Shown: positions 1 to 36,095 of the stretch, one piece after another
How the letters are laid out: every line of letters starts with the position of its first letter
Numbering within the stretch: the stretch's first letter is position 1
Origin: a virus
Taxonomy: Duplodnaviria; Caudoviricetes
Strand: one strand, 5' to 3'
DNA length: 41,822 bases
Virus record (IMG/VR): IMGVR_UViG_3300030098_003679
Location: 1-41,822 of that record
Made by a program: the position numbers and the translations under genes
The notes under the pieces: generated by a model
What the model was told of the DNA's origin: nothing
Seen by the model: only the letters and a program-made list of their open reading frames with translations
Database searches by the model: none

Positions 1-1
1 G

Positions 2-108: not shown

Positions 109-1422
109 TTACGAGCGGTTTTTAAGCCAATTGTAAGCTTTATATCCACCATAACCTACTAAACCAGCTAATCCTGCTCTTCTTAGTACATATGGAGCAA
201 CTCTAGCTAAAGCCGATTTAGAGCTTTTAGATAAAGGATTTTTAAGAACTTTATTCCATTTAAAATAAGCATCATTGTATTTATTCATAGCTGTAGCCAT
301 TTCGTTTTTCAACTTATTCCTAGAACCTCCAACCCTTAAACCTTTAGCTTTTTCTTCTCTGTAAAGAGGGTCAAATCTTCTAGGAGTATACGCTTTTTTA
401 CGCTCTGATTTTATACTAGGGTCATTACTAGCTTCTTTTATCTTTTTAGTAGCCTCTTTTATACTTATTTCTTTAGAATCTACATAATTAATAGCATCTC
501 TACCACCACCTTTAAAACCACCTATAACATCTCTTTTATCAGTAGCTATAATTCTTATTTTATCTTTCTTTTTAGGGTCCCATATTCCTACTGAATTATA
601 ACCACCCCAATCGAAATTAGACTTCCAACGAGGACTGGTCTGAAAAACTACTTTTCCATCTTTAATAGTTGCCATTGGGTTAAAATATCCTCTTCTAGAT
701 AAGGCATTAACTTTTTCAACAGCCATATTTACATTACCTTTGTGGTTCTTTAGAGTAGTCATAGCTCTATAAAAATTAGGGTCAAATTGAGCCCCTCTTA
801 CAACATCAGCCCATGCTGGAGTTGCATATTTTAAAAATAATACATTTTTTGAACTTGGAAGATTCCATTGCCTTAAAGCATATCTCCCTATATTGTTACC
901 TCCTGCACTTTTATAGAAATCTCCTGGATTACTCTTTTTTACATATTTACTAGCATAATCTGATAATGCATTCTGAGGAGTTTGTCTAAACATATGTGCG
1001 TTAGAAAAATCATTGGTAAGTTTGAAGTGAACTTGTTTTTCAATATTTCTTATTTGAAACTTAGCATCATCAAAACTTATTCTACCTGATGTATACATAT
1101 TTGTTAATCGAGCTATTTCTTTTTCAGCACCTAGATACCTTCTGTGTAATTGAGGAGGTATACCTGTTTTGTCATAAGCCAATACTTCGACAGGGTCTAA
1201 CAATGAATTATAAGCAAATCTTCGACTAGCTTTAGCAGCTTCTCTTCCCATTAATTGAGTCTTTTGCCAGTTAGTAACACCAGGCCCATAATATCCATCT
1301 AAATAATTATGCATATAATCAGCAACTCTTCTCATAGGAACTGCTTTTGCTGTATAAGCCGTACCACCTATACCAGCAGCTAATTTCAATAAATCCTTAC
1401 TAGTTTTTTTATTTTCTGCCAT
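109..1422 (-). CDS. Hypothetical basic virion/ejection-block protein (437 aa)
   Basis: Last ORF of the late arm, with a TAATG overlap to the 3003-aa gene. Gly/Ala-rich hydrophobic stretches at both termini. No family recognised. Confidence 0.6.
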   Translation of the reverse strand: MAENKKTSKDLLKLAAGIGGTAYTAKAVPMRRVADYMHNYLDGYYGPGVTNWQKTQLMGREAAKASRRFAYNSLLDPVEVLAYDKTGIPPQLHRRYLGAEKEIARLTNMYTSGRISFDDAKFQIRNIEKQVHFKLTNDFSNAHMFRQTPQNALSDYASKYVKKSNPGDFYKSAGGNNIGRYALRQWNLPSSKNVLFLKYATPAWADVVRGAQFDPNFYRAMTTLKNHKGNVNMAVEKVNALSRRGYFNPMATIKDGKVVFQTSPRWKSNFDWGGYNSVGIWDPKKKDKIRIIATDKRDVIGGFKGGGRDAINYVDSKEISIKEATKKIKEASNDPSIKSERKKAYTPRRFDPLYREEKAKGLRVGGSRNKLKNEMATAMNKYNDAYFKWNKVLKNPLSKSSKSALARVAPYVLRRAGLAGLVGYGGYKAYNWLKNRS

Positions 1423-4400
1423 TATCTTTCAACTCCATAAGGAGACCATGGATACCAAGGCCCTTTACCTTTTCTCATTTTCTTAGATTCATTATTTAAT
1501 GATTGTAATGGGAACCCAGCCCATTTATCAACCAACCCCATAGGATTTTCTATTAAATTATTTGGTGCTAGAAAGTCTTTAGCTAACCTTCCAAAAGGAA
1601 ATAGTGTATAAATATGGTAATTTGCAAATCTATCCCATTCTCCAGAATTAAGTGATTTCATGACAGACAAGGGATGTCTCATAATTGGAGGAGTAACTAA
1701 CTGTAAAGGAGCCAATCCTTTAGGCCACATACCAAAGAAAGCTCTATCTCTTTCATTTTCATTTCCAAATAACCAGTCTGCTGTATCTTGAAACCAAGAA
1801 TAAGGAGCTGGCATAGCTGTATCAAATATAGAATAAGCAAAAGCATTACCTAAAGCAAATACTGTTAAATCAGCTTGCATTAACCTTCTAAATCTTTCAT
1901 ATTCTGGAGTACCTGCTCTTAAACCAAATATCTTAGCTTCTCTTGCTATATCATTTCTAAATCTTACAGCATTCCATTGCCATAGTTGGAAACGAGTCAT
2001 TATCTTGCCAAGAGCTGTTCTAGCAAATGCTGGTCTATAAGGAGCATTATATAGGAATTGAGTAGCTTTAACACCTTTCTTTGCTAATTCTATTAAAAAT
2101 GGATGGTCAGGATTCTTTATTGCACCATCAAACATTTCATATGCTCTAGCATAATGAGCCATAAAAGCATCTCTTCTTAGCATTCTCTCAGGAACAGACA
2201 TAAACTTAGAGGCTATATTCATTATACCTTCACTAACATTATGTTTTTTACCTAAATCTCTTAAAGTAGTTTCTGCTAATTCTCCATCATTCCCTATTTT
2301 CTTAGCTATATCCTTAGCAAAATTCTTAACATTAGCAGCTCTCATATCAGGGTCTATACCAAACTGATATAAAATAAACTCAGGAATTACACCGTGTTTA
2401 GTAACAAATGCGTCAATATCATCTTTAGATTTCCATTTAGGATTTATTTTATTAAGATATGAAATATCCCTACCTTTCTTAAAATACTCTAGTCCAGCAC
2501 TTTGTATACTATGAATGCTACCACCAAATATATTACCAACAGAAGCCTTAGGATGAGCAAGTAAAGATGCTAACTCAAATTTAGCTTCTGCATTTGATAT
2601 TTTCTGTAAAGTACTATAATCAATTTCATTCAAATGTTTATCTAATTCAGGATATTCAGATGCTTTCTTACCTAGAATAGTATCTTTCATACCTTGGAGT
2701 TTCTTTTTAACCCTGTTGTCAGCCCACCAATAATAAGGAGTACCTTTTAATTTCATACTAGGGTCATTATATATTCTCTCTGGTATAATAGCTGGATTAC
2801 CCATAGCATCTTGAGCATATAACTTTAAGAAATTCATCCAATTTCTAAGTAAATTACTCTGAACCTTAACACCATCTTCATTTATATAAGTACCAGTTTT
2901 TTCTTTATGCCAACCTAATTCTTCACCTCTCTTTCTAAATTGTTCAATTTTATGTCTAGAAAAAATCTGATTTATTTGATTAAAATATGTATTAGCTATA
3001 TTCCTTAAATAAACTTCATATGTATTCTTGCTTATATCATATCCAGGCATATGATTTGTTCTAGAATGCATACTACCCATCCTTTGATTAGCATTCCACC
3101 ATTTCAATTCATCACCTTTCTTTTTAGAATTTATCTCACCAGCAGCTCTTTCAAATGCATCCCATATTTCAGTTCCAGGCTCAATCCAATCTCCTGATAT
3201 ATTATGACCTTTCATAAGAATTTCTTTTATCTGAGCATCTCTAGCTTCTTCAGTTAGATTTGGGTCTTCTTTTACAGACCTTATAGCAGCCTCCATAGCT
3301 TTTCTAGACTCAGCTTTGCTATGAAACATATGAGGATAGTATCCAGAATAATTTAACTTACCAGTTTTAGTAAGTCTTGTTTTCATTAATTTAGCTCTAG
3401 CTTTATTACCAGCTTTATTTTTAGGGAAAAACTCTAATAGCATAGAACGAGCTATTTGTCTAACACCGTCAATACCTAGGTCTAAAGGAAAATCTTTACC
3501 TTCTCTATATCTAGCTTCTAAATCCTTAACAAATAATCTCCAATTTATTTCAGGCTCTTTTTGCTCGAAGTCAAAAAACTTACCTGTTTTATATCTATCA
3601 AGAGCCTCTGGTTTTCCAACCATCATTTCATGAGCTCTTTTATTCATATTGGTATAAGTCTCTTTAATTTTATCAACAATTTCCCAACCATTCATTTTAA
3701 CTTTAGTACCATCAGGGTTTGTAATATTATAAATTCTTTCTAAAGCAATTTTAGCAGAGCCCTTAGGATTAGCTGTTCTAACTTGATTACTAGAACCTTC
3801 TATAGATTTTATATATTCATCTCTATATGACCTAGCTTGTTGTCTTCTTCTGTCTAGGCTAATATCTTTATTTCTAAAAATACGAGGTATTTCACTAAGT
3901 TCCATTTTCCTGACAGCAATTCTTCTTAATGTTTCTCCGTATTCTGGAACTGCATCTGTATAAAAGCTTAATACAGAATTTAATTCTATATTTAACTTCT
4001 CGCCTAATTCAATAGCCTTTTCTCCAATTCTTCCGTTCCAATCTTGAAGCCCTTCTAATGCCCAACTAGGCTGTCTAACCCATCCTTCTTTCCATTCACC
4101 TGATTTAGTTTTGAAGAATCCTTTCTTCTTAACAAATTCAATATCATATTTCATCATTGATTTACTAACTGTTTTAGGAAACATCATCCAGAATCTCTTT
4201 TTCATATCAGGAGAATCTTCTTTAAACAATCTTTGTTGAAATGTACCTGCTCTCATGTCTTTTAAAAAGTTATTAAATATCTTCCAATCCTGTAAGTCCA
4301 TGACATTCATATCTTTCTTCATAACATCACGAGTAATTTCATTTAGTTTAAGAGTGTGGCCTTTAGAGTAATACTTTAAATTTTCAGCTAATTCAGTAAC

Positions 4401-7400
4401 AATTTTAGTCTGCTCAGGATTTAACTTACCTGCAGTTAAACCTTCATATCCGCTTAAATCTTCTACATAAGAATTTTTAACTAATTCTTTATCAATATTT
4501 TCTGGTTCAAACAATCTAACTTTACCATCTTGACCATCAACCTCTACCTTAACTTCTTCAGCTTTATCAAGAGCTTTTATAGCTTTCTTTATTTCAGACT
4601 CTTTAGCTTTAAATGATTTACCAGCTAATCCCATGTAATCTCTAAGATAGTCTCTAATAGATGTATCGCTTATAGATGTAGATGTATAGCCTAATTTAGT
4701 TAATGAACTTTTAGAGCCTTTCATCATATAGTCATGTTTTATTTTAGGGTCTTTTAGATTAACATTTCCCCTTTTAGCCATTTCATTCCTATTGTAAGAA
4801 CCTAGCATTAAATAATCGTAAAGCTTTTTCTCTGCATTAGTCTCAAGTCCATCTTTAAATTGCTTTATTCTTTTATCTACCTGAACTTGGTCTAACGATG
4901 AAGAACCTTCTGTGAGTTTATAATCTTTTTCTAATAATAATTTATATGCAGCTATTTCTTCAGGTGTATGATGGTCTCTTATAGCGTCTAAATCTCCTAA
5001 TTCCATCCTTTCTTTAGCCATTAAATAACTAGACTTTTTAACATCTTCTACTTCAGTGAAAATTCTTTCGATTGTTTTCATATCTAAAACATCTTTATTC
5101 TTTTCATATAAATCTGCTATTCTCTTCAAACTAACCATTTGATGTATATCGTTAGTTACAAAATCTTGAGCTTTTATCCAGACATCATTTACAATAGCCT
5201 CTCTTTCTTGAACTGAAAAATCTTCCATATCTTTTTTAAATTTCTCAGGAGTATCCTTTTTGTGTCTAGTATAATTTAATCCTTTCATAAAATCAAAAAA
5301 CTCTAGACTATCATTGGCTATATTTCTTCTTTGTCTGTCACTAAAAGCTCTAAAATCTAAAATCTTTTTAACAAATTGGCTTTCAGGTATTGTAAAAGTA
5401 GTTCTACCCATCATTCCTGCTAAAAATTTATAATCTTTAGCCATTTGATTCATATCTACATACAACTGTTCTAACTTACTTTTATCTATTTTATTAAATA
5501 TATTATCAACCCATTTAGGAGACTTATTAATTAATCTAGCTTGTTTAGCCATAATATTAGTTAGCTGAGTATTACTATCAAATTCGTTAATAAACTGCGT
5601 ATTCTCTTTAATTTCGCTCTCTGTCCACATTCTACCAGCTTTATAGTTCTGACCAAATAAAGATGTATTCATTTTCATCACATTTTCTAAAGTACCATTC
5701 TTTAATTTCCATATAGGGTCAAACTTTTTATTAGCAAACTTACTCATAAAGCCATCTAAATCTTTAATCTTAGCATCCACCAATCTATTATTGACGAACT
5801 TTTTAACATTTTTTACTTTGAAGTATGAATCGTAAAGCTCTTTAAAGTAAAATTGATAAGGTTTAATACCACCACTATCCATAGGGTCAGCAGTAAAAGC
5901 AGTCATAGATGATGTAAGCCTTCTAGCATAATCAAGCCATTCTTTTTCTGTTCTAGCTTCAATTTCTACTTGATATGTTTCCCATTTCTTACCTTCTTTA
6001 TTATCAAAATTAAATGTATCTACTTTACCCTTTTTATTAGCTATTAAATCATGAGCAGCTTTCATAGTTTGAGTCATAGATACAACACCACCCATTTGAG
6101 CACGACTATCTACAACATCTTGAGATACTTTTAATCTAGAACTAGGAGCATACATATATATCTGAGATTTTTTAGCCAACTTAGAGAACTCACTAGCTCC
6201 TTCTGTAAGTAAATCTTCCATAGACTGACCTTTATGCTTACCATCAGGTCTATTTACTTGACCAGATTTAGGGTCTGGTATAAATTTATCATAAGCTTCT
6301 TTTTGTTTAGCAGAAAGCTTTTTAAATTCTTCTGGTGTTTTATACTTATATTTACCACCAATTTTCTTCTTAGTCACATACTGAACGTACTCTTCTTTAT
6401 TGGCTTCAAATACATCTTTCCAAGTCTTCTTCATCCCCTCACCAACACCAGCAGCATTCTTTCCACCAAAATACACAAATGCTTCATCAGCATCTAAATC
6501 AGCACCACCTAATGCTCTCATACTTCTTGGATGTAATAAAATACCATGGCCATTTCTACCAGTAAATCCTCTGAACTTTAATGCGTGTGCTCCCGATATA
6601 GAATCCATAGGAACTCTTATAGCCATAGCTCTAAATATTTCCTCAACTTCTTTTTCTAGTCCTTTAAAGTTTTTACTATAATCAACTTTACCCTTGTCAT
6701 TGACAGATGCTTCCCATAACTTTCCTAATGTAGTTTTCTTAAACTTTCCAGGAAGATGTGTTATTATAGGCATATCATAGTATTTATTATCTAAAAAGAA
6801 TATATCATCTCTAGTATTAAGTTCTTTTAAATAAGGATTTGACTTATCTAAATCCATCATCATTGCTTTGTCATATGGCCTCATTCTAGCAGCAGCTGAA
6901 TTACCTATTTTAGGTTTAGCAATTTGATTCATTATATAACTTCTCATTACTTTTAACCTATAAGGTCTAATCCATTTATGAGTATATATTGCAGCAGCTT
7001 TTATATCTGCTTGTTTAGCTACTTTATTAGCTTGATTTAATATTCTATCAGTCATAGTGTTAAAATCTTCTAATTCTTGAATATACTCATTAAGTTCAGT
7101 TTCTTTATGACCGTTTTCTCTAGCTTCTTCATAAGCAGCTTCTTTATTAATCTTTAATAGCTTTCTAAAAGCAGCATCAGAGAATTCCGTACCCTCATTA
7201 GTATTAGCTGCTTCTAGTAATTCATTAACACCTATCTTGTCTATATTCTTTATAAGTTTATTTAAGCCTTCTTTTGTTGGATTTTTCCTATAATTAGCTA
7301 GGGCATCATTCCATTTAGTTTCACCTTGGTATGACTTAGCTATAGTCTCATTAAATATATCAGTTATTACTTCATTATCTATAGGTTTGTAAGCAACTTT

Positions 7401-10400
7401 AGAATTTAAATTACTAAACCACTGCTTAGGTATCCTATGATTATGCTTCCACATATTATCATGCTGTTTAACAGAATAACTATATTTAATATGAGAAGGG
7501 TCTAATGTATATTTATCAGCGTTTAATGAAAATTTACCTCTAGGAGATATATCGTAAGTACCTACGTTTCTTTTACCTAATTGTTTAGTAGAGGATTCAT
7601 ATATTAAATAATGCAATCCTTCTTTTTTCATAGCTTCTGATAACTTTTTACCAGCATCATGAAACATAAATTTACCATACATTCCACCTAATTCTCCATC
7701 AGGGGATAGAATAAATGCTTTATTTTGACCAGACTCTGGCTGACCAGCATCTTTATTATTAAATTTAACTACATCATCTCTAGCTATTATAGCTCCATCA
7801 GTCTTTTCTAAGAAACTATCAGCATATGCTTTAAATAACTTTTCATCATGTTCTTTTAATTTTTCTATATCTTTTACTACCGAATATCTAAAACCACCAT
7901 GCTTCTTAAATACCTTGTCTTTAGCAAACTCTACTTTAGCAAATTCCTTACTACCTGCCCAAGCAGGAGTAAGCATAATCTGTAAACGCTTATTATAATC
8001 TAGAGTATTACTTATAAAGCCTGTAATATCTTTAGGTCCCCACATTTTCTTTAAATTAGCTGGGGTTAAATCATAACCTTGCATCCCCATATCATATAGT
8101 ATATTAGATATAAAAGCATCATCGAACATCTTTCTAGATTCAGCTTTTGTTAGATTAGGAAATTGCTCTCTAAAGAGAGTTAAGGCTTTCTTGTAATTAG
8201 CTTTTCTATTACCCTTAGGTCCTATTAGCCTGTTTAAAGTAGGACCAAGCTTATTAGACTTTGTTTTAGGATGGTATTTAACAAAGAACAACTTATCTGC
8301 ATCACCTCTGCCACCAAAAAGATACATACCAACATTCTTTTTATTCATGTTTTTAACAAGCTTCTGAATAGTAGCATCATAAACCTCTGGACTTGCTTTC
8401 CTTAGGTCAGATAACTTATAATCCTTCCAATGACCAGAACTGTTTTTCATGCTTATATGGTCCACAGTAGTCATATTGCCATATTTAGTATCTATCTCAC
8501 CACCACTTTCTTTTAAATAGATTTCCTCTAGAACCTTCATTGGCTCTTGAGAATCCTTTTTATTACCAGCTTTAGTCATATTTTCAGCCATAGGCTCAAT
8601 TCTAAAATACTCTTTACCTTTCTTGCCTACAGAGTACATAAGACGCATATGAGGCTGTTTTTGGCCATTATTAGCGATGTTTAGCCATTGTCTTAACTCA
8701 CCCCTTGCTTCAGCAGAAAGTGGCGCTCCTAGCTCTTTTTGAAGCTCATTAGCCATTTTCTCTGTATTCGGCTCTTTTCCTGGCTCTATATTTTTAATTA
8801 ACTGTTTGTCTACTTTTGCTGATATTAAAGTTCTTAAATCATTTTTAGTGACCATATCAACTTCGGGTAGTTCAAATAAATCCTTTAGCCATTTATCTGC
8901 AAATTGTTGTGCTCTATTACCTACTCTTATATCGCTAACAATCTCACCTGGGTCTGAAGCATTATCTTGATTTTCCCCTACTTTAGAGACAATATCTTCA
9001 GGCTTAATACCTAGTTCTAACTGCTCTTTTAATTCTGTTTTCTTAACTATTTCATTGGATAATTCACCTATCTTTTCAGATGTATATAAATACATAGCTG
9101 ATTTTTTACCAGTATCTTTAAATATCTTATTTTCTACATCAAATGCTTCTTGTAGGCTCTTAATCTTTTCAGCTGATTTATCTATATCTTCTTGAACTTT
9201 AAATATCTTTTTAACAATTCTTTCTTGAGCTGGCTCTACTAAAGGCTCCTCAGCTAGATAATTAGCATGTTCTTGACTTATTTCGCCAGTCTTCATTATT
9301 TCACGAGCTTTTTCCCAAGACTCTTTAGTTATATTGCCATACTTATCTTGAAGCCCTAATTGCTTTATAATCTCATGCCCCATAAAGCCACCAACATTGT
9401 TAGGATAAAGCTTATCTATTTCTTTATATACTTGCTCTTTTATTTCAGGGTCAAGTTTATCCCACTTTTCACCCATAAGTTTAGGGTCTTTTTTGATGTC
9501 CATCTCAGCATTCTTAACGCTTTTAGCACCAAAGTCTTTCATAAATTTCATTGCACCTGCTTTCTGCCAAGGAACCTCATTTAACCCAAAGAATCCACCT
9601 AATAAATACTCGTATACTTTCTCTGGTGTAGTAGCACCTCTAGCTTCTGCTGATAATCCTTGAAATAAAGAACCAGCTAATCCTCTAGTTAATTTAGTAG
9701 CTTTAGGGTCTCCTAGTTTTATAGCATTACCCAGTGTTCTAAATACACCACCAGCTAGAGCTCCATGAAATGTTCCTTCTAGCATAGCATTTACACCACC
9801 TTGCCATGAAGATAGCCCACTAGCTACACCTAAGTCGAATGCACCTTCGGCTACATGCCTAGCTGCACCTTTATTTAGAAAGCTAGCAACAGTATTTACA
9901 GCACCAGCTTTTCCTTCAGCTGCTTTCTTAATCATAGGAGAACTTATCTTCTCTACTCTTTTCCTTATAGCTTGAGCTCCTAACATAGGTATTGATTTAA
10001 TACCAGACATCTTTTGAGCCCAACCAGCCATTCCTGCCATTCCAGCCATTCTTGCTAATCTTCCTACAGGAGCTGCTACCATACCTGGAGCAAATCCTAT
10101 TAAATGACCTACGCTTCTAGCTATAGCTTCGTATTCATTATCAGGAGCAGACCCTACATTAAAGGTGGTAAAGCCAGAAAACATCCCTTTAGCGAGTTGC
10201 ATAATAGCTTCGCTTGGATTAAATTCTCCAGTATAAAAGGGTATATTGTGATAGTTAGCGTGTTCTTCTAATTTTTTTTGTAAGCTTTTAGGGAGGCTTC
10301 CACGAAACTCACTCGCTCTTTTTATAAGAGCACGAGTTTGTTCAGCCCCATAGATAGGTTGAAATTGCCCAGATTGTTGAGGCTGTTGAACCTGTTGAGG

Positions 10401-10433
10401 AGAACGTAGTTGTGTTCTCGGAATATATACCAT
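1422..10433 (-). CDS. Giant virion/ejection protein containing a single-chain two-barrel RNA polymerase (putative virion RNAP, 3003 aa)
   Basis: Motifs in the order seen in QDE-1/cellular RdRP-like polymerases: TDGAII (about 7794-7802), GKFMFH, YESSTK (about 7584-7598), RVPMDS (about 6609-6617), LGGADLDADEAFVY (DLDAD at 6486-6500, aa about 1312-1316). Gly/Ala-rich N-terminus typical of ejection proteins. Located after the tail genes. Confidence 0.8.
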   Translation of the reverse strand: MVYIPRTQLRSPQQVQQPQQSGQFQPIYGAEQTRALIKRASEFRGSLPKSLQKKLEEHANYHNIPFYTGEFNPSEAIMQLAKGMFSGFTTFNVGSAPDNEYEAIARSVGHLIGFAPGMVAAPVGRLARMAGMAGMAGWAQKMSGIKSIPMLGAQAIRKRVEKISSPMIKKAAEGKAGAVNTVASFLNKGAARHVAEGAFDLGVASGLSSWQGGVNAMLEGTFHGALAGGVFRTLGNAIKLGDPKATKLTRGLAGSLFQGLSAEARGATTPEKVYEYLLGGFFGLNEVPWQKAGAMKFMKDFGAKSVKNAEMDIKKDPKLMGEKWDKLDPEIKEQVYKEIDKLYPNNVGGFMGHEIIKQLGLQDKYGNITKESWEKAREIMKTGEISQEHANYLAEEPLVEPAQERIVKKIFKVQEDIDKSAEKIKSLQEAFDVENKIFKDTGKKSAMYLYTSEKIGELSNEIVKKTELKEQLELGIKPEDIVSKVGENQDNASDPGEIVSDIRVGNRAQQFADKWLKDLFELPEVDMVTKNDLRTLISAKVDKQLIKNIEPGKEPNTEKMANELQKELGAPLSAEARGELRQWLNIANNGQKQPHMRLMYSVGKKGKEYFRIEPMAENMTKAGNKKDSQEPMKVLEEIYLKESGGEIDTKYGNMTTVDHISMKNSSGHWKDYKLSDLRKASPEVYDATIQKLVKNMNKKNVGMYLFGGRGDADKLFFVKYHPKTKSNKLGPTLNRLIGPKGNRKANYKKALTLFREQFPNLTKAESRKMFDDAFISNILYDMGMQGYDLTPANLKKMWGPKDITGFISNTLDYNKRLQIMLTPAWAGSKEFAKVEFAKDKVFKKHGGFRYSVVKDIEKLKEHDEKLFKAYADSFLEKTDGAIIARDDVVKFNNKDAGQPESGQNKAFILSPDGELGGMYGKFMFHDAGKKLSEAMKKEGLHYLIYESSTKQLGKRNVGTYDISPRGKFSLNADKYTLDPSHIKYSYSVKQHDNMWKHNHRIPKQWFSNLNSKVAYKPIDNEVITDIFNETIAKSYQGETKWNDALANYRKNPTKEGLNKLIKNIDKIGVNELLEAANTNEGTEFSDAAFRKLLKINKEAAYEEARENGHKETELNEYIQELEDFNTMTDRILNQANKVAKQADIKAAAIYTHKWIRPYRLKVMRSYIMNQIAKPKIGNSAAARMRPYDKAMMMDLDKSNPYLKELNTRDDIFFLDNKYYDMPIITHLPGKFKKTTLGKLWEASVNDKGKVDYSKNFKGLEKEVEEIFRAMAIRVPMDSISGAHALKFRGFTGRNGHGILLHPRSMRALGGADLDADEAFVYFGGKNAAGVGEGMKKTWKDVFEANKEEYVQYVTKKKIGGKYKYKTPEEFKKLSAKQKEAYDKFIPDPKSGQVNRPDGKHKGQSMEDLLTEGASEFSKLAKKSQIYMYAPSSRLKVSQDVVDSRAQMGGVVSMTQTMKAAHDLIANKKGKVDTFNFDNKEGKKWETYQVEIEARTEKEWLDYARRLTSSMTAFTADPMDSGGIKPYQFYFKELYDSYFKVKNVKKFVNNRLVDAKIKDLDGFMSKFANKKFDPIWKLKNGTLENVMKMNTSLFGQNYKAGRMWTESEIKENTQFINEFDSNTQLTNIMAKQARLINKSPKWVDNIFNKIDKSKLEQLYVDMNQMAKDYKFLAGMMGRTTFTIPESQFVKKILDFRAFSDRQRRNIANDSLEFFDFMKGLNYTRHKKDTPEKFKKDMEDFSVQEREAIVNDVWIKAQDFVTNDIHQMVSLKRIADLYEKNKDVLDMKTIERIFTEVEDVKKSSYLMAKERMELGDLDAIRDHHTPEEIAAYKLLLEKDYKLTEGSSSLDQVQVDKRIKQFKDGLETNAEKKLYDYLMLGSYNRNEMAKRGNVNLKDPKIKHDYMMKGSKSSLTKLGYTSTSISDTSIRDYLRDYMGLAGKSFKAKESEIKKAIKALDKAEEVKVEVDGQDGKVRLFEPENIDKELVKNSYVEDLSGYEGLTAGKLNPEQTKIVTELAENLKYYSKGHTLKLNEITRDVMKKDMNVMDLQDWKIFNNFLKDMRAGTFQQRLFKEDSPDMKKRFWMMFPKTVSKSMMKYDIEFVKKKGFFKTKSGEWKEGWVRQPSWALEGLQDWNGRIGEKAIELGEKLNIELNSVLSFYTDAVPEYGETLRRIAVRKMELSEIPRIFRNKDISLDRRRQQARSYRDEYIKSIEGSSNQVRTANPKGSAKIALERIYNITNPDGTKVKMNGWEIVDKIKETYTNMNKRAHEMMVGKPEALDRYKTGKFFDFEQKEPEINWRLFVKDLEARYREGKDFPLDLGIDGVRQIARSMLLEFFPKNKAGNKARAKLMKTRLTKTGKLNYSGYYPHMFHSKAESRKAMEAAIRSVKEDPNLTEEARDAQIKEILMKGHNISGDWIEPGTEIWDAFERAAGEINSKKKGDELKWWNANQRMGSMHSRTNHMPGYDISKNTYEVYLRNIANTYFNQINQIFSRHKIEQFRKRGEELGWHKEKTGTYINEDGVKVQSNLLRNWMNFLKLYAQDAMGNPAIIPERIYNDPSMKLKGTPYYWWADNRVKKKLQGMKDTILGKKASEYPELDKHLNEIDYSTLQKISNAEAKFELASLLAHPKASVGNIFGGSIHSIQSAGLEYFKKGRDISYLNKINPKWKSKDDIDAFVTKHGVIPEFILYQFGIDPDMRAANVKNFAKDIAKKIGNDGELAETTLRDLGKKHNVSEGIMNIASKFMSVPERMLRRDAFMAHYARAYEMFDGAIKNPDHPFLIELAKKGVKATQFLYNAPYRPAFARTALGKIMTRFQLWQWNAVRFRNDIAREAKIFGLRAGTPEYERFRRLMQADLTVFALGNAFAYSIFDTAMPAPYSWFQDTADWLFGNENERDRAFFGMWPKGLAPLQLVTPPIMRHPLSVMKSLNSGEWDRFANYHIYTLFPFGRLAKDFLAPNNLIENPMGLVDKWAGFPLQSLNNESKKMRKGKGPWYPWSPYGVER

Positions 10434-10459: not shown

Positions 10460-11632
10460 CTATTCGCCACCGAAATAATCAATGCCTAAGTCTATTAAGT
10501 CATAAGCACTCCATAGTCCCATAGCTACATTACCAATTAAAGGTAAAGACGAGCCTGCAGCTTGTCTTCCTGCAGCTTTAACGCCCCATAATGCAGCTTT
10601 ATTCCTTAAGTAATTAGCACCTTTCTTCTTCCCAAGAGTAGATACAGTTTGTTTTACTGATTGGTCTTTAATCTTATTAGAAACAGTTTTTTGTAAAGCT
10701 GCCTTTTTAATGCCTTTATCTTTTATATCAAAAGCTCTTGCCATTTCTCTTAATTCTTTAGATTTCATGGTTTTTATATCTTTCATCATACCATCTCTTA
10801 CACTTGAGGATAAAGCACTTCTTATCGACTTATAATCTTTCGGCACATTAGTAATAGCTTTTTTGCCTAAATAACCAGCACTAGCAAGTCTAGCTATATC
10901 TGTAGCACCTTGAGGAGCTCCTAATTGGCTCATTAACATCGGTGTAAAAGCAGCTGCACCACTTTTCATTGCACCACCTTTTAAGAAGTCAGGGAATTTA
11001 TCTTTAAGCATATAAGCTACTCCTCCAAGTCCAGCAGCACCAGCGGCAGTCGTTTTTGGATTATCTCCCATCCATTCAGGGATTGCACCTGAGCCCATAA
11101 AGGTATCACCATGTCTCATATAAGAGCCACTTGGCTTGTATTTACTAAATTCAAGTCTTTCCATTGTACCTAATTCATCAGCAGAAAATCCAGTAGCTTC
11201 TATATCTAAGAAATCTTTTGCAAATCTAGGGTCGTCTCTAAATAAACGATGGACATCTTTCTCTCTAGCTCCCATAGCTATTGCTTCATCAAAAGATGCT
11301 CTCCAAGTAGCATTTTGAGCTGATTTAAAATCATTGTATAAAGTATTAAATGTTTCTACATCTATAGGAATTTGTTTACTTTTAGCAATTCTTTGAAACT
11401 CATTCCAGAGTGTAGTCTTGTCTTTTATTGCTAAATTACCAGGATTATATTGAAGGTTTCCATTGGAGTAAGAGACCGAAGAAGACCCTTTTTGAAGTAA
11501 GTTTTGAAACTCAGTTTGCAAAGCTTTATAAAAATCAGATGTTCTTTGAGCATCTATAGCCTCTTGTCTTTGTCTATTTGCATCTAATAAAGATGCCATA
11601 CGTTCTCTTCTTTCTGAAATGTTTATTGCCAT
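10460..11632 (-). CDS. Putative ejection (internal virion) protein (390 aa)
   Basis: Located in the ejection block. Ala/Gly-rich hydrophobic segments (TTAAGAAGLGGVAY; GSSLPLIGNVAMGLWSAYDL). Confidence 0.6.
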   Translation of the reverse strand: MAINISERRERMASLLDANRQRQEAIDAQRTSDFYKALQTEFQNLLQKGSSSVSYSNGNLQYNPGNLAIKDKTTLWNEFQRIAKSKQIPIDVETFNTLYNDFKSAQNATWRASFDEAIAMGAREKDVHRLFRDDPRFAKDFLDIEATGFSADELGTMERLEFSKYKPSGSYMRHGDTFMGSGAIPEWMGDNPKTTAAGAAGLGGVAYMLKDKFPDFLKGGAMKSGAAAFTPMLMSQLGAPQGATDIARLASAGYLGKKAITNVPKDYKSIRSALSSSVRDGMMKDIKTMKSKELREMARAFDIKDKGIKKAALQKTVSNKIKDQSVKQTVSTLGKKKGANYLRNKAALWGVKAAGRQAAGSSLPLIGNVAMGLWSAYDLIDLGIDYFGGE

Positions 11633-11641
11633 ATCTAATCC

Positions 11642-12298
11642 TTATTTAAAATATTTATTTACTCCAAGCCTTTTAGCTATATTCTCTGGTTCCCATCCCA
11701 TAGCTTCTCTTAAAAGACCCTCTTTTTTCCATTCTATGTTTTCTATAAGCTCTTTATCTTTTTCAGGGTCACCAGTTAGGTAAAGAGGTTTATTGTAATT
11801 AGCGAATTCTTCTGGAGGGTTTACTCTCCATCCAGTCACATCTCTCGCCTTATAAGGCTCACCTTTATCCCATTGCCCATTATTATTTAAATCTTTGTAC
11901 TCATCTCCCTCAGCATACTCAACTAAAGGATTGTAAGTAGCTTCTACACCATAAAAGTCTTTAGTGTAATCATCTTTAGCCTCTAAGTCATAAAAAGGAT
12001 TATCTCCTGTATACACCCCTTCATCTTTCCTCTTATTTATAGCTACTTTTTTATCTATCAAAGCCTGTCTTTCCTTTATTTCTTTCTCTTTCCTCCTTAT
12101 CTCTCTTCTTTCCTCAATTGTTTCTACAAATCTATCCAAAAGCGATTTTCCAGGCTTATAAGCACCTCTTCTAGCATTTGACATAATACTTTTAAATCCT
12201 TCAACAGCATTAGCCTCTCTATTCATAGACTCAGCTAATAGCCCTGCTAATAAAGGGCTTTGAAATGTAGCTCCAAAATTGCTATCATAGTAACTCAT
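11642..12298 (-). CDS. Putative internal virion protein with a DxNxNGxWD loop (218 aa)
   Basis: Long ORF in the operon. Contains EYKDLNNNGQWDKGEPY, a Dx[DN]xDG-like Ca-binding loop. Confidence 0.55.
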   Translation of the reverse strand: MSYYDSNFGATFQSPLLAGLLAESMNREANAVEGFKSIMSNARRGAYKPGKSLLDRFVETIEERREIRRKEKEIKERQALIDKKVAINKRKDEGVYTGDNPFYDLEAKDDYTKDFYGVEATYNPLVEYAEGDEYKDLNNNGQWDKGEPYKARDVTGWRVNPPEEFANYNKPLYLTGDPEKDKELIENIEWKKEGLLREAMGWEPENIAKRLGVNKYFK

Positions 12299-12940
12299 CT
12301 ATTCAAATAGTCCTGTAATAGCATCCCATGCTCCTTTAGCCGCATCAACCGTCTGACCTATTCCCCCTCCTTCTAAAAAGTCAAAAACTTGACCCCCTAT
12401 ACCAGACATTGCATCTGCTTGTTTTTCTCTCATTCCTTGTTGGTACATTAAATTTTGCTGTCTAGCGCTAGCTAAAGTATTAGCAGCTGCTCCAGCCTTA
12501 CCATAAAGGTCTGAAGACATTCTCATTCTATCTGCGTGCCCCCTATTGTAGTTCTCTAAAGCATTTGCTATAGCGGTGCTTATAGCGTTCTGACTTAAAT
12601 TTCTTGAAGAAATACTATCGTCAACCATTCCTGTAGCCTCATTTGCAGCTCTTCTTGCTATGTCTGTCATAGCATCTAAATTCTGTCCTCTTATATTATC
12701 TCTCATTTGAACATTCATTTGACTATTGGGGTCGGCATATTGCCCAGCTTGATATAATAAGTTTTTATAAGACTCCTCTAAAGGGTTTATAGACTGCTGA
12801 AGTTGAGCAAAAGAAGGTCCTTGAGTCCTGTGCCTCTCTATTCCATAATCTATAGCCATAGCAAACGGGTCCCACCATTGAGCTTGAGGAATAGATGTTG
12901 GTTGAGTATTAACGTTTTCTAAATTTTGTAATGATGACAT
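12299..12940 (-). CDS. Putative ejection protein, Q/A/N-rich helical (213 aa)
   Basis: AAGGAG SD upstream. Composition and position are typical of podoviral ejection proteins. Confidence 0.6.
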   Translation of the reverse strand: MSSLQNLENVNTQPTSIPQAQWWDPFAMAIDYGIERHRTQGPSFAQLQQSINPLEESYKNLLYQAGQYADPNSQMNVQMRDNIRGQNLDAMTDIARRAANEATGMVDDSISSRNLSQNAISTAIANALENYNRGHADRMRMSSDLYGKAGAAANTLASARQQNLMYQQGMREKQADAMSGIGGQVFDFLEGGGIGQTVDAAKGAWDAITGLFE

Positions 12941-12953
12941 AATTCTCCTTTAA

Positions 12954-13448
12954 TTAAACTCCTGTCCAACCACCACCATATCCACCTATATTTTGCTGAG
13001 AGTAATCTATAGTAGGATTAACAGGCATAGGGCTTGGTTGATAATGTGAACTAAATTTTTGTCCTGTATATTGAGGTGTAGTAGGCGGCATAGGACCTTG
13101 AGGCATAGGAGGTTGAACCATAGGTGGTTGCATTTGTGGCCCCATTTGCGGTTGAGAGCCAGCCATAGCTTGCCCTAATAAACCACTAGCTTTCTTTCTA
13201 AGTTGTCCTTTTATAAATTTATTACTAGCAAGATTCTTTATACCAGCACCTATTTTACTGCCTACTCCACCTAACATGTTACCTAATGGACCAGCACCAA
13301 ATAAACCAGCACCACCAAGACCTAAACCTAATAAACCAAGGCCTTCGCCAAACTTCATTTGCTTTATACCTTTACCTATCTTCTTTAGGTTCTTTCCAGT
13401 ACCTATATCTTTAAGTCTTAATTTTTTTAAATTACTAAATAATCCCAT
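12954..13448 (-). CDS. Putative ejection/pilot protein, Gly-rich with a Pro/Gln-rich tail (164 aa)
   Basis: GLGLLGLGLGGAGLFGAGPLG hydrophobic segment and PQMGPQMQPPM low-complexity tail. First gene after an internal promoter. Confidence 0.6.
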   Translation of the reverse strand: MGLFSNLKKLRLKDIGTGKNLKKIGKGIKQMKFGEGLGLLGLGLGGAGLFGAGPLGNMLGGVGSKIGAGIKNLASNKFIKGQLRKKASGLLGQAMAGSQPQMGPQMQPPMVQPPMPQGPMPPTTPQYTGQKFSSHYQPSPMPVNPTIDYSQQNIGGYGGGWTGV

Positions 13449-31462: not shown

Positions 31463-32848
31463 TTAAGAAAACTTAAGAACTGCGTGGGTTTCAGGCAAAC
31501 TAATTTCAAGACCAGCTTCGGTCAGAACCATGTCTGAACGGCCATCAACACCATTGTCTTGAACGTTAGTTTCAATAAAGGTATCTCGACTAATACCATT
31601 ACCCACTAGTGGTCTGTATGCTACATTCTTCATATCAACAGCTACGCAATAATCTTCCCAAGGTCCTCTTAATAGAGGTTCAGCTACAAAATGCAAATTA
31701 CCAAATATAGTATTTACAACTGTTACTGTGTGCCCAAAAGCACCAGGAATACTAGTAACGTCTAGTCGATATTGAGATGAGCCAACAGAATTGTTCATAA
31801 AAGAGCCATTACCTAGTTTATTTAAATAAGTAATAACTTTTCTAGAAGCAAGAACTAGCTTATTTCCTGAGTTTCCACTTTCAGGTGCAAAGAAATCCTC
31901 CATTGCATCTAAGAAAGCATCATACCCAGAAGAAGCATAAGACATATTATATACCTTACCATTAGTATTAGTATAAGGCAAAATACCCCAAGTAGTTCTA
32001 TATGGAGCATTTGTTGTTGATGTCTCATTAGATGAAGAGCCAACTCCAAATAAGAATGCTTGCTCTATATCCATTTTGTGCTCCATAAGTTTATCTTGCC
32101 AGATTCTTTGGAACTCATTCTTAATACCTCTATATTCTGTAGCAAGAGAAGTACCAGAAAAGATATTCATACCAGTTTTAAATATCTGAGTATATCCTTC
32201 ACTGTCGTACATTTTGTCTTCCCAACCTACAGGACTATCAGTACCCTCAGCCCATGCAGAGCCAATCACTTGACCTTTATTACCAATTGCAAAGCTTTCG
32301 CCTGAGCCAATATCCTCTAAAGGAATTAATGCTTTACCATTAATTTGAGTAATTCCTGTAGTATTAGCATCATGATTGATATACTTACCATCAGTCAATG
32401 TATTTTCTCTTTCTACTACTGCAGCGTGGTCAACTTTAAATTTAAAAACTGTACCACTATCTGCTTTTACAGCCACTACAACACCAGGAACAATAAATTC
32501 GCAATGATTGTCACTGCTGCTTATTTTTCCATAAGTATCATATCTAGCTGTTATATGTAAATCCTCTCCGTTCGCTAATGCTGTTCCAGCAGTCTCTGCT
32601 CCTGGATTAAATGTCGCATTTGCTACTTCAAAGTTTCTTCTTTGCCATTGATGACGTTGTTCTAAAAACTTAAACACAGGGTCGTTGGTCGCCTTTTTTG
32701 CAACTTTTGATAGATATACAAAAAATGGAGACTGTTGAGGAGCGAGTTCTGCAACTCTATCCCCAAAGTTAAATACTCTCCGTGTATCGTCAATAGAAAT
32801 ACCACCTGGCGTTGTGGCTCCAAAGCCACCACTGTATACGTTTGCCAT
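31463..32848 (-). CDS. Major capsid protein (HK97 fold, SU10-MCP/DUF5309-like, 461 aa)
   Basis: Follows the scaffold gene. SPFFVYLSK...NDPVFKFLE, GSAWAEG, YTQIFKT...EHKMDIEQAFLFG, and C-terminal LTEAGLEISLPETHA. Confidence 0.85.
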   Translation of the reverse strand: MANVYSGGFGATTPGGISIDDTRRVFNFGDRVAELAPQQSPFFVYLSKVAKKATNDPVFKFLEQRHQWQRRNFEVANATFNPGAETAGTALANGEDLHITARYDTYGKISSSDNHCEFIVPGVVVAVKADSGTVFKFKVDHAAVVERENTLTDGKYINHDANTTGITQINGKALIPLEDIGSGESFAIGNKGQVIGSAWAEGTDSPVGWEDKMYDSEGYTQIFKTGMNIFSGTSLATEYRGIKNEFQRIWQDKLMEHKMDIEQAFLFGVGSSSNETSTTNAPYRTTWGILPYTNTNGKVYNMSYASSGYDAFLDAMEDFFAPESGNSGNKLVLASRKVITYLNKLGNGSFMNNSVGSSQYRLDVTSIPGAFGHTVTVVNTIFGNLHFVAEPLLRGPWEDYCVAVDMKNVAYRPLVGNGISRDTFIETNVQDNGVDGRSDMVLTEAGLEISLPETHAVLKFS

Positions 32849-32922
32849 TTTTCTATTTCCTAATTAACACCCAATCCTATCAACTGCTTGTTAGCCTTCT
32901 AGGTGAGTGCCCCATACGGGAT

Positions 32923-33852
32923 TTACCAAGGATTTTTACTTTTAAAATCCGATATCATGTTATCCATAATTTGGTCTTCCGATGAGACTGTGTTTTTTCC
33001 AGCTGTTGGTTGCACACCCATTGGCTGTGGAACTTGCTGAGCTCTTTGAGCTTGCTGGAAAGTAGGGGAAGGTTCTGCAGGTTGCCCTTGCGTAGGGGCT
33101 GCGTTACCTTGTCCATTCTGCAGTCTATACAATTTGACCAAATTGTCAATTGAGATGGACGAAGGGTCTGACATTTGCTTTATAAAATCCTGAGATTCTT
33201 GAGGCGTCATTCCATAATTACCTTGCATAAGCTGGTCAACTTCTTTCATTTGATTAGCTTGCTGTATTTGAGCCTCACGAGCTTTAATAGCTCTAGTTCT
33301 CTCTTCTTCCATTTTTTCCATTTTCTCTCTTACAAGAGCATTGTCGTATTGGTTTCTAAGAGAATTATACTCATCCATTTTATCTCGCCATTCATCTACT
33401 TCATCCAAATATCTAGCAGATTCACTACTAGAGTCTTCAAAGGCTTCTTGCCTATTGAAGTTTCGAGGTTTAGCTGGTCTTTCTGGAGGTGGAGGAAATT
33501 CCTGAACTGCAGGTTCTGGCTCTGCTTGAGGTTGCTGCATTTGCTGTTGAGCTTGCTGCATCTGCTGTTGCATTTGCTGAATCTGATTGTCCTTTTGAGC
33601 TGCCTGTGATTGCCAGTATTGAAACCTTGTATCATCATTCTTTGCTTCTAAGGGCTGAGGTTGTTCCTGTACTTCTGAGGGTGCCGCTTCTGGGGCCTCT
33701 TCTCCAGTTTGCGCAGTAAACGCATCTGTTGGAGTCAATGTATTATCTACGGAGCTCTCTGGAGCTTCAGTCTGAGGAGCGTCTGTAAAAACGCTTTCAT
33801 CAAACATTTCATTGGCTGATTGAGAGGTATCCGTTCCTTGATTATCTACCAT
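32923..33852 (-). CDS. Capsid scaffolding protein (309 aa)
   Basis: Lies between portal and MCP. Acidic disordered N-terminus, YWQSQA motif and Q-rich coiled coils. Confidence 0.8.
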   Translation of the reverse strand: MVDNQGTDTSQSANEMFDESVFTDAPQTEAPESSVDNTLTPTDAFTAQTGEEAPEAAPSEVQEQPQPLEAKNDDTRFQYWQSQAAQKDNQIQQMQQQMQQAQQQMQQPQAEPEPAVQEFPPPPERPAKPRNFNRQEAFEDSSSESARYLDEVDEWRDKMDEYNSLRNQYDNALVREKMEKMEEERTRAIKAREAQIQQANQMKEVDQLMQGNYGMTPQESQDFIKQMSDPSSISIDNLVKLYRLQNGQGNAAPTQGQPAEPSPTFQQAQRAQQVPQPMGVQPTAGKNTVSSEDQIMDNMISDFKSKNPW

Positions 33853-36095
33853 TATTTTCTTCTCCTGTTTTTAGACTGCTTCTTTCCACTAGAAGGTGAG
33901 TCTTTTTCTTGTTTGTCTAGCTCAGACACATAATCTGTAATCTGACGCTTCACTGTGGATAGTGTGTCATCAAGACGCTTTTCATAAAGAGTGCTTGCAG
34001 CTTGAGATTTATTCTGAACCTTATCAAGTCCTGAAGCAAATTTCTCCACTTCAAGTTTTTTACGTAAGTTAACAGACTCTCTATCTCTAGTTTGCAAGTC
34101 TCCTTTGAGCTTCTTAATTTCTTCTTGAGCTCCTTGTAATGCTCCCTGTAACTTAGCAATAGTATCCATTCTTTGCTGAACACCTTCGGCATCGAACACC
34201 TCAGTCTTTTTAAGAACTTCCTGTCTATCAATAAGTCCCATTTGGAAAGCATCTTTATAGAACTCTAATTCTGCGTATCTATTTGTAGGTAAGGTTGAAC
34301 CTGCTACACATACTACGTCATATTTTCCAACGGTTATATCATTAAATATTTCAATTTCACCTGTTTTATCATCAACTAATCGTTGATTTAAAACATACTC
34401 ACTCAAAGAGTTATTTGGATTAACAACTCTAAATACTTTTTTAGTAGTATACAATTGTTGCATTAAAGGTATAGCAACTTGAGCTACTCGTGTTAAACCA
34501 GCTTCTATATCAGCTAATTTAGATTTAATCTTTCTTTGACCAAACTCATCTAAACTTATAGTAGCTTTATAAGTTTGAGGAGCTGCAGCAGTATTTCCTT
34601 GCATCATTTCATATATACCTAATTGATGGTCTATATCATTTTTTGCACTCATTTCATTTTGATAAAGTTCATTAGGTAGTGGAGATGGTTGAACAGCCAT
34701 AGGAGCACCATCGGTTGGGTCATAAGAGATTGCCACGCCTGGTTGAGCCCATTTCTGTTCAAAGTCAGCCATATCCACACTCCCTTCTGGGACAAGTATT
34801 TTTGTATTCGTACTAGTTGTTGCATGTGCTATTATTAATGACCTTGTTTTATTTATATACTCCTGCATACCTTTTACTAATCTTACATCTCCTACTGGAT
34901 AAGGACTCCTTGTATGGATATTCATAAAAGGCACGATTGGATATTGTTCTATTGGAAGAATTCTTTTATATAAAAGCTTGTCTCCAACTACTACACATTG
35001 ATGAACACGGCTCATTAATACTTTTACTACCTCAATTGCACCTTGCTCAATTAAATCTTTATAAGAAACTTCTAAAACATTAACTTCTCTTTGAGGAGGG
35101 TTAGGACTTTCAGCTAAAGCATCCAAACCTTCTTTTTCCATTTCCTTCTCAATTGCAAGCCTATGACCCATTTGCTCTGTCTTATTCTGTTCCTCTAAAA
35201 GCTGAATAAGCTGAGCAGCTTGATTCTTATCTGTTATAATTTGTCCTTCTATAATCCACGCAGGACGTTGAGAATACTTCTCAAATTTCTCCTCGTTTAA
35301 AACATCTTCTTTTCCACTCCATTGCTCAAACACTCTAAACTCTGGAATATGCTTCTTGTAATATCTTTCATATCCTCTTACATAGTTAGTATTATCTAAA
35401 GTTCCTACGTCTTCTGGGAAATGAACAGTTCCATCGAAATGTCTTCCAGTTTCTGGAGCATTCCAGTCTTGTTCGCTATTTGTCTCTTCTATATCCTTTT
35501 TAAACATTGGATATAGTTTTTTAGCCTGCTCTTTAGTGAACAGCCTTGATACTATAATATTTTCTGCATCATCAAAAAACCTATGCTGACTATTAGGGTC
35601 AACATAAACATCTAAAGGGTCTAAGTCGTGGATACAAACCTCACCTTTCCCCATATCCATCATTGGGTCTTGATATACTTGCATATATCCAATACCCATA
35701 ACATAATAGTCATCTACTACTTTTCTAACTACAGTAACACCATCTGATATGTCATACATGTAAGACAGTAAATTACTCATAACATTCGCTACTTTTTTGT
35801 CAGAATCTTCTCTTGGAGAAGCTCTAAAAGAAGGCCTGTTTGCTGTAATCATAGCTTTTGCTGTTTCAACAGCAGGATGGATTCTGTTAACCACTATAGC
35901 AGCTTGACCTCTAGCTTCTAATGTCTCCACTTGTTTAGTGGTCCATTGTTTTCCTAATCTAAACTCTCTATCTTCTTTTGCTTCGACAGCCCAAGTATCT
36001 CTTTTCTTGGAATATCTTTGATAAATATCTATCGTTTCATTAACGAAATCACGCTCGCTGTGAGCAGGTTTAGTATTATTGTCTTCATACGGCAT
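33852..36095 (-). CDS. Portal protein, P22-like (747 aa)
   Basis: EDREFRLGKQW...VVNRIHPAVE, DPLDVYVDP, YPIVPF...QEYINKTRS, GKYDVV and a C-terminal coiled-coil barrel. Follows TerL. Confidence 0.9.
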   Translation of the reverse strand: MPYEDNNTKPAHSERDFVNETIDIYQRYSKKRDTWAVEAKEDREFRLGKQWTTKQVETLEARGQAAIVVNRIHPAVETAKAMITANRPSFRASPREDSDKKVANVMSNLLSYMYDISDGVTVVRKVVDDYYVMGIGYMQVYQDPMMDMGKGEVCIHDLDPLDVYVDPNSQHRFFDDAENIIVSRLFTKEQAKKLYPMFKKDIEETNSEQDWNAPETGRHFDGTVHFPEDVGTLDNTNYVRGYERYYKKHIPEFRVFEQWSGKEDVLNEEKFEKYSQRPAWIIEGQIITDKNQAAQLIQLLEEQNKTEQMGHRLAIEKEMEKEGLDALAESPNPPQREVNVLEVSYKDLIEQGAIEVVKVLMSRVHQCVVVGDKLLYKRILPIEQYPIVPFMNIHTRSPYPVGDVRLVKGMQEYINKTRSLIIAHATTSTNTKILVPEGSVDMADFEQKWAQPGVAISYDPTDGAPMAVQPSPLPNELYQNEMSAKNDIDHQLGIYEMMQGNTAAAPQTYKATISLDEFGQRKIKSKLADIEAGLTRVAQVAIPLMQQLYTTKKVFRVVNPNNSLSEYVLNQRLVDDKTGEIEIFNDITVGKYDVVCVAGSTLPTNRYAELEFYKDAFQMGLIDRQEVLKKTEVFDAEGVQQRMDTIAKLQGALQGAQEEIKKLKGDLQTRDRESVNLRKKLEVEKFASGLDKVQNKSQAASTLYEKRLDDTLSTVKRQITDYVSELDKQEKDSPSSGKKQSKNRRRK

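Follow-up and report, generated by a model that had tools for sequence, protein, structure and literature searches.

The locus described here raises the question of whether a phage can carry an RNA polymerase of the two-barrel type into its host within a giant ejection protein, and which genes such an enzyme would transcribe. The DNA, from an uncultured marine phage, is the IMG/VR virus record IMGVR_UViG_3300030098_003679 (Duplodnaviria; Caudoviricetes), whose 41,822 nucleotides we call the window, and the gene in question (1422..10433, minus strand) encodes a cysteine-free protein of 3003 amino acids (aa) with a Gly/Ala-rich N-terminal module, a predicted two-barrel RNA polymerase core and a helical C-terminal part. 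A first reading made from the DNA letters alone (the sequence-only reading) had proposed a virion-packaged polymerase of this kind. Our analysis indicates that the protein is likely a DNA-dependent two-barrel RNA polymerase that is made late, packed in the head, injected with the DNA and used to transcribe the early arm on the opposite strand, an interpretation to which we give a probability of about 75%.

All five polymerase-type motifs behind this proposal were found in order in the 3003-aa open reading frame (ORF), one copy each: TDG at residue 878, GKFMFH at 920, ESSTK at 946, RVP at 1273 and GGADLDAD at 1309-1316. DLDAD is the sole DxDxD of the protein, and D1312-L-D1314-A-D1316 (6486..6500, minus) is the predicted Mg2+-binding catalytic motif. 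Contigs from four marine runs (three studies) cover 30/30 bins of window positions 1-14000, with no single piece among the contigs listed spanning them entirely. Since a 95%-identical IMG/VR relative (L001) has the identical intact ORF and likewise reads DLDAD, the alanine of this motif is real. The holders of window DNA, among those listed, were marine metagenomes throughout, and no RNA dataset was among them. The whole protein had no match in Pfam, PHROGs or NCBIfam, PDB sequence searches with the protein and with profiles returned nothing relevant, and neither the core nor the C-terminal part had a tblastn match among 50,697 GenBank phages. An Atlas search with the core retrieved unnamed clusters only, all under 0.8.

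The identification of the core as a polymerase is carried by its predicted structure, obtained by the AlphaFold and Foldseek route that the sequence-only reading had suggested. The AlphaFold2 model of aa 590-1700 (5334..8666, minus; 67 sequences) has a predicted local distance difference test score (pLDDT) of 87.4 and a predicted template-modelling score of 0.87. Its top Foldseek match was phi14:2 gp66 (6vr4, E 1.1e-10), with QDE-1 and maize RDR2 next among the matches listed (E 2e-5 to 4e-4). In VIA comparisons, the core aligned with QDE-1 at Z 18.0 (532 residues, root-mean-square deviation 4.5 Å), RDR2 at Z 16.5, P23-45 gp64/P74 gp62 at Z 12.8, phi14:2 gp66 at Z 11.2 (745 residues, 4.0 Å) and P23-45 gp96 at Z 10.5. 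The top Foldseek and VIA rows were two-barrel polymerases throughout, and no T7-type fold was among the listed matches; YonO, which the sequence-only reading had named as a relative, did not appear by name among them, with no YonO-directed comparison made. In BFVD, two proteins matched the core model at 25-28% identity (E<=4e-43), followed by proteins of crAss-like phages at 8-13% identity (E 1e-10 to 1e-3). The absence of a barrel pair had been named as grounds for abandoning the proposal; the model contains two strand clusters, and the middle third of the protein is predicted, almost with certainty, to adopt the two-barrel fold.

The first beta-barrel region (aa ~848-985; 7479..7892, minus) holds the invariant D879-G880, K921 and K950. 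Two-barrel RNA polymerases have two invariant lysines in the barrel that lacks the aspartates, and the first barrel is likely the beta-type (two-lysine) one; judged by position, K921 and K950 would be equivalent to the beta-subunit lysines. The second region (aa ~1179-1321; 6471..6899, minus) holds R1273-x-P. In VIA, alignments with the Pol I, II and IV largest subunits are confined to the second half of the model (model residues ~571-1046), as expected for a barrel of the beta-prime type. A candidate bridge helix (aa 1430-1465, model helix H841-876; 6039..6146, minus) is suggested by its position after the Asp barrel. These limits were drawn from secondary structure and general polymerase anatomy, without residue-level superposition.

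Conservation of the putative active site was followed in two sets of homologues. A search with residues 800-1400 yielded 336 proteins of 1651-5256 aa, the best 120 of which, minus the query itself, form the near set of 119. A core profile search yielded 532 clusters (50% identity level), of which 284 reached E<=1e-30; from 140 new identifiers among the best 150 of these clusters, the 86 proteins of at least 2400 aa were kept as the distant set and shorter ones were dropped as likely fragments. K921, R1273, P1275, D1312 and D1316 occur in 119/119 near homologues, and K950 and D1314 in 118/119. All 86 distant homologues keep D879, G880, K921 and K950; for R1273, P1275 and the three aspartates the count is 85/86, the single exception (P0196) having a gap at the motif but DLDID further along. 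The 80 IMG/VR polymerase loci discussed below were chosen by patterns containing GGADLDGD and are therefore excluded from this evidence. The GGADLDAD signature thus holds for its three aspartates, the loss of which among homologues would have spoken against the proposal, and not for its alanine: DLDGD is usual, with Gly at motif position 4 in 116/119 near homologues and Ala a minority state. Among the 86 distant homologues, position 4 is G in 49, I in 23, S in 7, A in 5, F in 1 and a gap in 1. The crAss-type DxDID is thus present in 23/86; Ile or Val at this position is the type of crAss-like phages, unlike the Ala of the window copy, and Ile has been linked to self-inhibition of gp66 (gp66 preprint). 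Because Ile and Gly are mixed in the deep branches of a midpoint-rooted tree of the distant set, the direction of change cannot be polarised. We consider it highly probable that the core is an active enzyme, as predicted. Within the family, one polymerase gene appears as two ORFs of 445 and 1481 aa (L054), another has a 1267-aa ORF immediately upstream (L059), and one homologue (P0096) has only 2208 aa, on a 52-kb contig.

The composition of the protein and its neighbours points to the virion. The other minus-strand ORFs of the window would lead one to expect 18.4 Cys in the 3003 aa of the giant protein, which has 0 (P about 1e-8); with its neighbours it forms a block of six contiguous genes (109-13448) whose 4425 aa are all cysteine-free. 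Cysteine is absent from 115/119 near homologues (4 Cys in 366,635 aa), from 78/86 distant homologues and from the giant protein of a 68%-GC relative (L097); for comparison, the primase-helicase encoded at these loci contains 11.6 Cys per 1000 aa. Cysteine suppression is a conserved trait of N4-type virion RNA polymerase (vRNAP) and ejection operons (PMC11445570, PMC3915230), and the six-gene block of the window carries this N4/DEV signature. Four of its genes (390, 218, 213 and 164 aa; 10460..13448, minus) lie directly upstream of the polymerase gene and are candidates for channel-forming ejection proteins; homologues of the 390-aa gene occur in 41/80 loci, with 0 Cys in 16,792 aa. An optional 437-aa gene after the polymerase gene (109..1422, minus; 9/80 loci) is a candidate injected cargo. 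The sequence-only reading had placed the giant gene among Gly/Ala-rich ejection genes at the end of the structural arm. Its position is borne out, since it ends the arm of terminase, portal, capsid, adaptor and tail genes; the neighbours received no ejection-protein annotation from PHROGs or NCBIfam and only sub-cut-off noise from Pfam, so that their ejection label stems from position and cysteine loss.

Both ends of the protein are conserved, each module being present in 84/86 distant homologues. The N-terminal module (aa ~1-330; 9444..10433, minus) is Gly/Ala-rich (fraction 0.30-0.34 in aa 101-300) and weakly hydrophobic, its best 19-aa hydrophobic window scoring 1.24 at aa 103-121; it is likely a membrane or ejection anchor. 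The helical C-terminal module (aa ~2510-3003; 1425..2900, minus), whose identity among near homologues reaches 0.74, is likely an encapsidation or ejection module. A model of aa 1850-3003 has pLDDT 66, falling to about 50 or less across the last 140 aa. Foldseek returned nothing for it at E<=0.001 and VIA nothing with Z>=8; weak Foldseek matches to E1004 core proteins of phages (E 0.09-0.3) neither show nor exclude an ejection-protein fold. Weak leads tie the C-terminal module to LPD38 or PLxRFG: an Atlas (language-model) LPD38 cluster (0.94, 147 features) and NF032893 in relative L097 (E 1.3e-4, 20.6 bits against a cut-off of 100). A further weak lead for this module is phrog_11358 (E 7e-4); Pfam LPD38 matched in none of the 30 segments scanned, and a profile comparison of the C-terminal part with phi14:2 gp67 found no similarity. 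Relatives also have interchangeable insertions (NADAR, SLOG, Dda-like helicase, 2OG-Fe oxygenase, DUF7831, DUF1848) that resemble those of packaged polyvalent proteins (PMC5512222), which lends further indirect support to a virion protein.

Because cysteine suppression is family-wide and the layout is common with phi14:2, we infer both packaging and early transcription: that the giant protein is virion-borne and injected seems to us very likely, and that it transcribes the early arm, probable. It would be made late and packed in the head with its small cysteine-free neighbours, the four upstream proteins building a channel through the envelope and the N- and C-terminal modules having the ejection and encapsidation roles that the end domains play in N4 vRNAP. 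Once the channel had formed, the polymerase would be threaded through the tail and refold in the cytoplasm, where, on the model of gp66 and QDE-1, the three aspartates would bind Mg2+ and the two lysines would complete the active site. Transcription would begin near 39908-39999 and run into the arm of primase-helicase, Sak4-like ATPase and HNH genes, the late arm being left to the host enzyme.

The plus-strand early arm foreseen by the sequence-only reading is seen in relatives; the window itself covers only about 1.9 kb of it, and the early/replication arm was read from those relatives. Where the sequence of the 80 loci extends past the polymerase gene, the opposite-strand arm was found to carry a primase-helicase in 57/80 and an HNH gene in 62/80; in relatives it also has Sak4-like ATPase and exonuclease genes, and the primase is an AEP-type PriCT_1/DnaB fusion. 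A convergent layout also surrounds phi14:2 g065-g067, where g066 is the polymerase gene.

At the other junction, between the divergent arms, lies a single-copy conserved non-coding element, TTT..AAAAA-N7-8-AGAATGSGT-N6-GAWAYAC...GTTGA (39908..39999, plus), written here in the direction of the early arm and common to the window and 5/5 relatives, with a GC-rich stretch between GAWAYAC and GTTGA. It occurs once in the window, in none of 100 shuffles, and once in the available sequence of each of the five relatives; it was not found in the phi14:2 and crAss001 stretches. An IMG/VR scan returned 23 stretches, 18 with the fixed spacer and 15 of these also with the upstream tract; five of the 23 contigs belong to the 80 polymerase loci, two of them having helped to define the pattern, and the remaining matches mostly look like chance. 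Rfam assigned no family to the element (one weak match, E 0.21), and a repeat scan of the divergent region gave no convincing repeats. An N4-type hairpin promoter is not supported, because the genomes share no common hairpin (z-scores about +1 to -4.7, with differing folds). The element is a candidate for a promoter of the polymerase, a packaging site or an origin, and we propose the first of these only tentatively. P23-45 gp96 uses a conserved AT-rich upstream motif (10.1101/2022.12.01.518664). On the minus strand, at 39727-39755 and about 39870-39900, TTG...TATATT-like sites point into the late arm and recur by eye in all six genomes (the window, L081, L085, L089, L090 and L093); they are candidate host-type late promoters, with a strict pattern not above chance genome-wide.

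Several observations tell against our interpretation. Sequence searches link the core to no solved polymerase; in hhalign, RVP...DLDAD pairs with RIP...DFDID of gp66 at E 0.28, below significance; and the Foldseek matches of the core are partial, with template-modelling scores of 0.30-0.39. The fold is silent on virion versus non-virion function, because the non-virion gp64/gp62 (Z 12.8) slightly outscore the virion proteins gp66 and gp96. Cysteine loss is not exclusive to the block, other window ORFs (e.g. of 472 and 309 aa) being cysteine-free too, and the virion protein gp66 has 2 Cys. No strong transmembrane helix is predicted in the giant protein. The element need not be a promoter, because the early transcripts of phi14:2 had no common upstream motif (gp66 preprint), and a packaging site fits it equally well, since the terminases of the relatives (75-90% identical to that of the window) are far more conserved than the polymerases (33-47%).

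An active, virion-borne enzyme might instead mainly pull the genome in or make short RNAs or primers, with host RNA polymerase expressing the early arm. Such a role would suit a core whose best Z scores are to QDE-1/RDR2-type enzymes, N4 vRNAP acts in genome injection (PMC4496689), and plus-strand sigma70-like sites lie near 39854 and 40645. These sites are, however, at chance level (8 found versus 9.6 expected), the phage encodes its own primase and gp66 transcribes early genes in vivo (gp66 preprint), so that we consider this role improbable.

A second alternative concerns membership: the phage could be a deeply diverged, reduced member of the Crassvirales and its enzyme an orthologue of gp66. 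The order terminase-portal-scaffold-capsid...phosphoesterase...large tail protein-cargo-polymerase and the convergent arms are the same, gp66 is the top Foldseek match with the longest alignment, and DxDID recurs among the distant homologues. The sequence-only reading had argued for a separate lineage partly from the P22-like portal, an argument that fails: the crAss001 portal is itself annotated as P22-like and weakly matches the same profiles (PF16510, E 0.0024; phrog_156, E 6e-9), and the portal is thus no discriminator. Tests run with phi14:2 and crAss001 as controls nevertheless uphold the separate lineage, Crassvirales markers being missing. The head module (31463..37610, minus) comprises a SU10-type capsid (PF17236, E 1e-34), a scaffold-like ORF, the P22-like portal (PF16510, E 9e-70) and the large terminase subunit (TerL; phrog_38, E 2e-89); a candidate small terminase is encoded at 37610-38368. 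Pfam profiles for crAss capsid, muzzle, ring, auxiliary-capsid and cargo proteins matched 0/30 window proteins at E<=0.05, remote fold homology being possible, but scored 203-1250 bits on the controls. The major capsid protein (MCP) of the window matches PF17236/phrog_1328, not PF23898/phrog_11589, which the controls match with 665 and 758 bits, and TerL and portal fall in PHROGs 38 and 156 versus 6681 and 6547 for the controls. BLASTP against phi14:2 gave E 2.5 for the MCP and E>=0.33 for TerL and portal. The best GenBank matches of TerL and MCP are 23-29% identical, with no crAss-like phage among the best 40 of 759 (TerL) or the 5/5 (MCP).

The replication genes lead in the same direction. 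Typical crAss traits are DnaG, SNF2, IHF and usually a DNA polymerase (PMC7886860). Five near-complete relatives (G001-G005; 48-56 kb, CheckV completeness 94-100%, no end repeats) lack PF13155 (Toprim), PF00271 (SF2 helicase-C), PF00476 (PolA) and PF00136 (PolB) in 5/5 cases, with cellular controls positive. As these genomes have their own primase-helicase and no PolA or PolB, replication would borrow the host polymerase. For the IHF-like gene of the crAss structural block, PF00216 matched in 0/5, but the crAss IHF controls miss Pfam as well; phrog_12177 had no match among the 30 window proteins. Together with genomes of about 52-56 kb, the profile results for capsid, tail and replication proteins make membership of the Crassvirales, in our judgement, quite unlikely. 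As to the Shine-Dalgarno-led genes that the sequence-only reading had pointed to, Shine-Dalgarno-like motifs precede 18/31 window genes (background 15%) versus 3/31 in phi14:2. Shine-Dalgarno use is low in Bacteroidia and Flavobacteriia, and its frequency in the window therefore argues against a typical host from these classes. Two distant matches (24% identity) come from bacterial bins: a 3232-aa homologue with GGADLDGD (L097:6959-16657), whose 68%-GC contig of 52.9 kb was placed with Bacteroidota, and a fragment (L098) from a Rhodothermales bin. They are a weak hint of FCB-group hosts; the first contig is as long as the genomes of these phages and probably represents a phage binned along with the bacterium. 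A strict Bacteroidota-type promoter pattern was near chance (2 found versus 1.28 expected) and thus gives no host evidence.

It is very unlikely, in our view, that the protein is a non-virion polymerase that is made during infection and transcribes middle or late genes, in the manner of P23-45 gp64 or SPbeta YonO. The match of gp64/gp62 to the core is compatible with such an enzyme, but the gene is the most distal one of the late structural arm, cysteine is suppressed throughout the family, and conserved end modules add about 1900 residues to the core, whereas the gp64 and gp62 chains have ~590 aa. A purely structural ejection protein with a dead polymerase fold is the least probable of all, the Ala of the window copy at motif position 4 weighing little when 85-86 of 86 distant homologues preserve the catalytic-type residues and active gp66 itself has Ile there (gp66 preprint).

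The giant protein has parallels in several known systems. Like phi14:2 gp66, the core has single-chain two barrels with R-x-P...DxDxD, superposable over the 745 residues mentioned above, and its gene is the last of the structural arm, opposite the replication arm. The two differ in that identity is about 10%, near relatives have mostly DxDGD where gp66 has DFDID, and one 3000-aa chain, with no C-terminal similarity to gp67, stands in place of gp65/66/67; here the capsid and tail are non-crAss, the genome is 52-56 kb, the primase-helicase is AEP-type and a DNA polymerase was not found. QDE-1 (Neurospora/Thielavia) and RDR2 (PDB 2J7N, 5FSW, 7W82) are single chains with the highest Z (16.5-18.0, about 500-575 residues), but they are cellular RNA interference enzymes of eukaryotes, have about 930-950 aa in the solved chains, lack virion modules and are 8-12% identical. 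P23-45 gp96 likewise fuses a two-barrel core into a giant virion protein, in a long-tailed thermophile phage with a tape-measure fusion and two polymerases, unlike the podovirus-type head-tail module and the one polymerase found here (10.1101/2022.12.01.518664). Coliphage N4 gp50 and Pseudomonas phage DEV gp71 share the chain of roughly 3000-3500 aa of N-domain, polymerase and C-domain, cysteine suppression and adjoining small ejection genes, but the catalytic core of N4 is T7-like (PMC13434306, PMC11445570, PMC4496689). LPD38 polyvalent proteins such as phi24B gp47 are also giant, capsid-packaged and variable in accessory domains, and a two-barrel polymerase is not described in them in the accessible parts of the sources (PMC5512222, 10.64898/2026.04.10.717836).

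Other genes of these phages deserve mention. A 1784-aa unannotated tail-region protein (window 15464-20818), in the slot of the crAss muzzle or podovirus nozzle gene, has homologues of up to about 2500 aa in 53/80 loci, and two LamG/concanavalin-type virion proteins (window 26708-30465) are ordinary. In near-complete relatives, the early arm opens with a ubiquitin-like ORF (Ub-Mut7C, weak), followed by a 490-560-aa protein without match in Pfam or NCBIfam, a JAB-like protease (below cut-off) and a ThiF/E1 protein (L089:6838-10148, L085:14799-18545, L093:15354-19077, L092:8321-11380), a possible phage-borne ubiquitin-like conjugation module. A spore-photoproduct-lyase-like radical SAM gene lies in the early arm of 9/80 loci (e.g. 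L001:12850-13701), glycosyltransferases (GT2 with TPR, GT4) flank the arm junction next to one polymerase gene (L046:14010-15323 and L046:16571-17677), and a DUF2589 gene (E 7e-34) lies within the structural arm of G004 (L090:17217-18129).

To our knowledge, crAss-like phages and Thermus P23-45 are the only phages for which injection of a two-barrel RNA polymerase is established. That strategy is therefore already known, as is the single-chain ejection architecture of N4. In the literature covered, which left out most subscription papers and the supplements and genome sets of crAss surveys, we did not find a two-barrel core in an N4-type chain in a compact, non-crAss marine lineage; environmental outgroups of the crAss surveys might include members of this group. 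Taken to its full extent, as a large lineage of 52-56-kb marine podophages that unite the N4 design with a crAss/QDE-1-type DxDGD core starting at a fixed-spacing element, the proposal is speculative, and we would sooner doubt it than accept it. If true, the enzyme would be a single-chain two-barrel polymerase that needs no factors and has a defined promoter, and among phage enzymes it might stand closer to the eukaryotic RNA interference polymerases than gp66 does. Comprising at least 532 protein clusters and overlooked by Pfam, PHROGs, NCBIfam and the GenBank phage search, the family would widen the strategy to a separate marine lineage and suggest that the polymerase module moves between virion types. 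The natural G/I/A/S variation at motif position 4 makes the question of gp66 self-inhibition testable by comparison, the element is a concrete promoter candidate of a kind lacking for gp66, and the family enlarges the sampling available for tracing the origin of the eukaryotic RNA interference polymerases.

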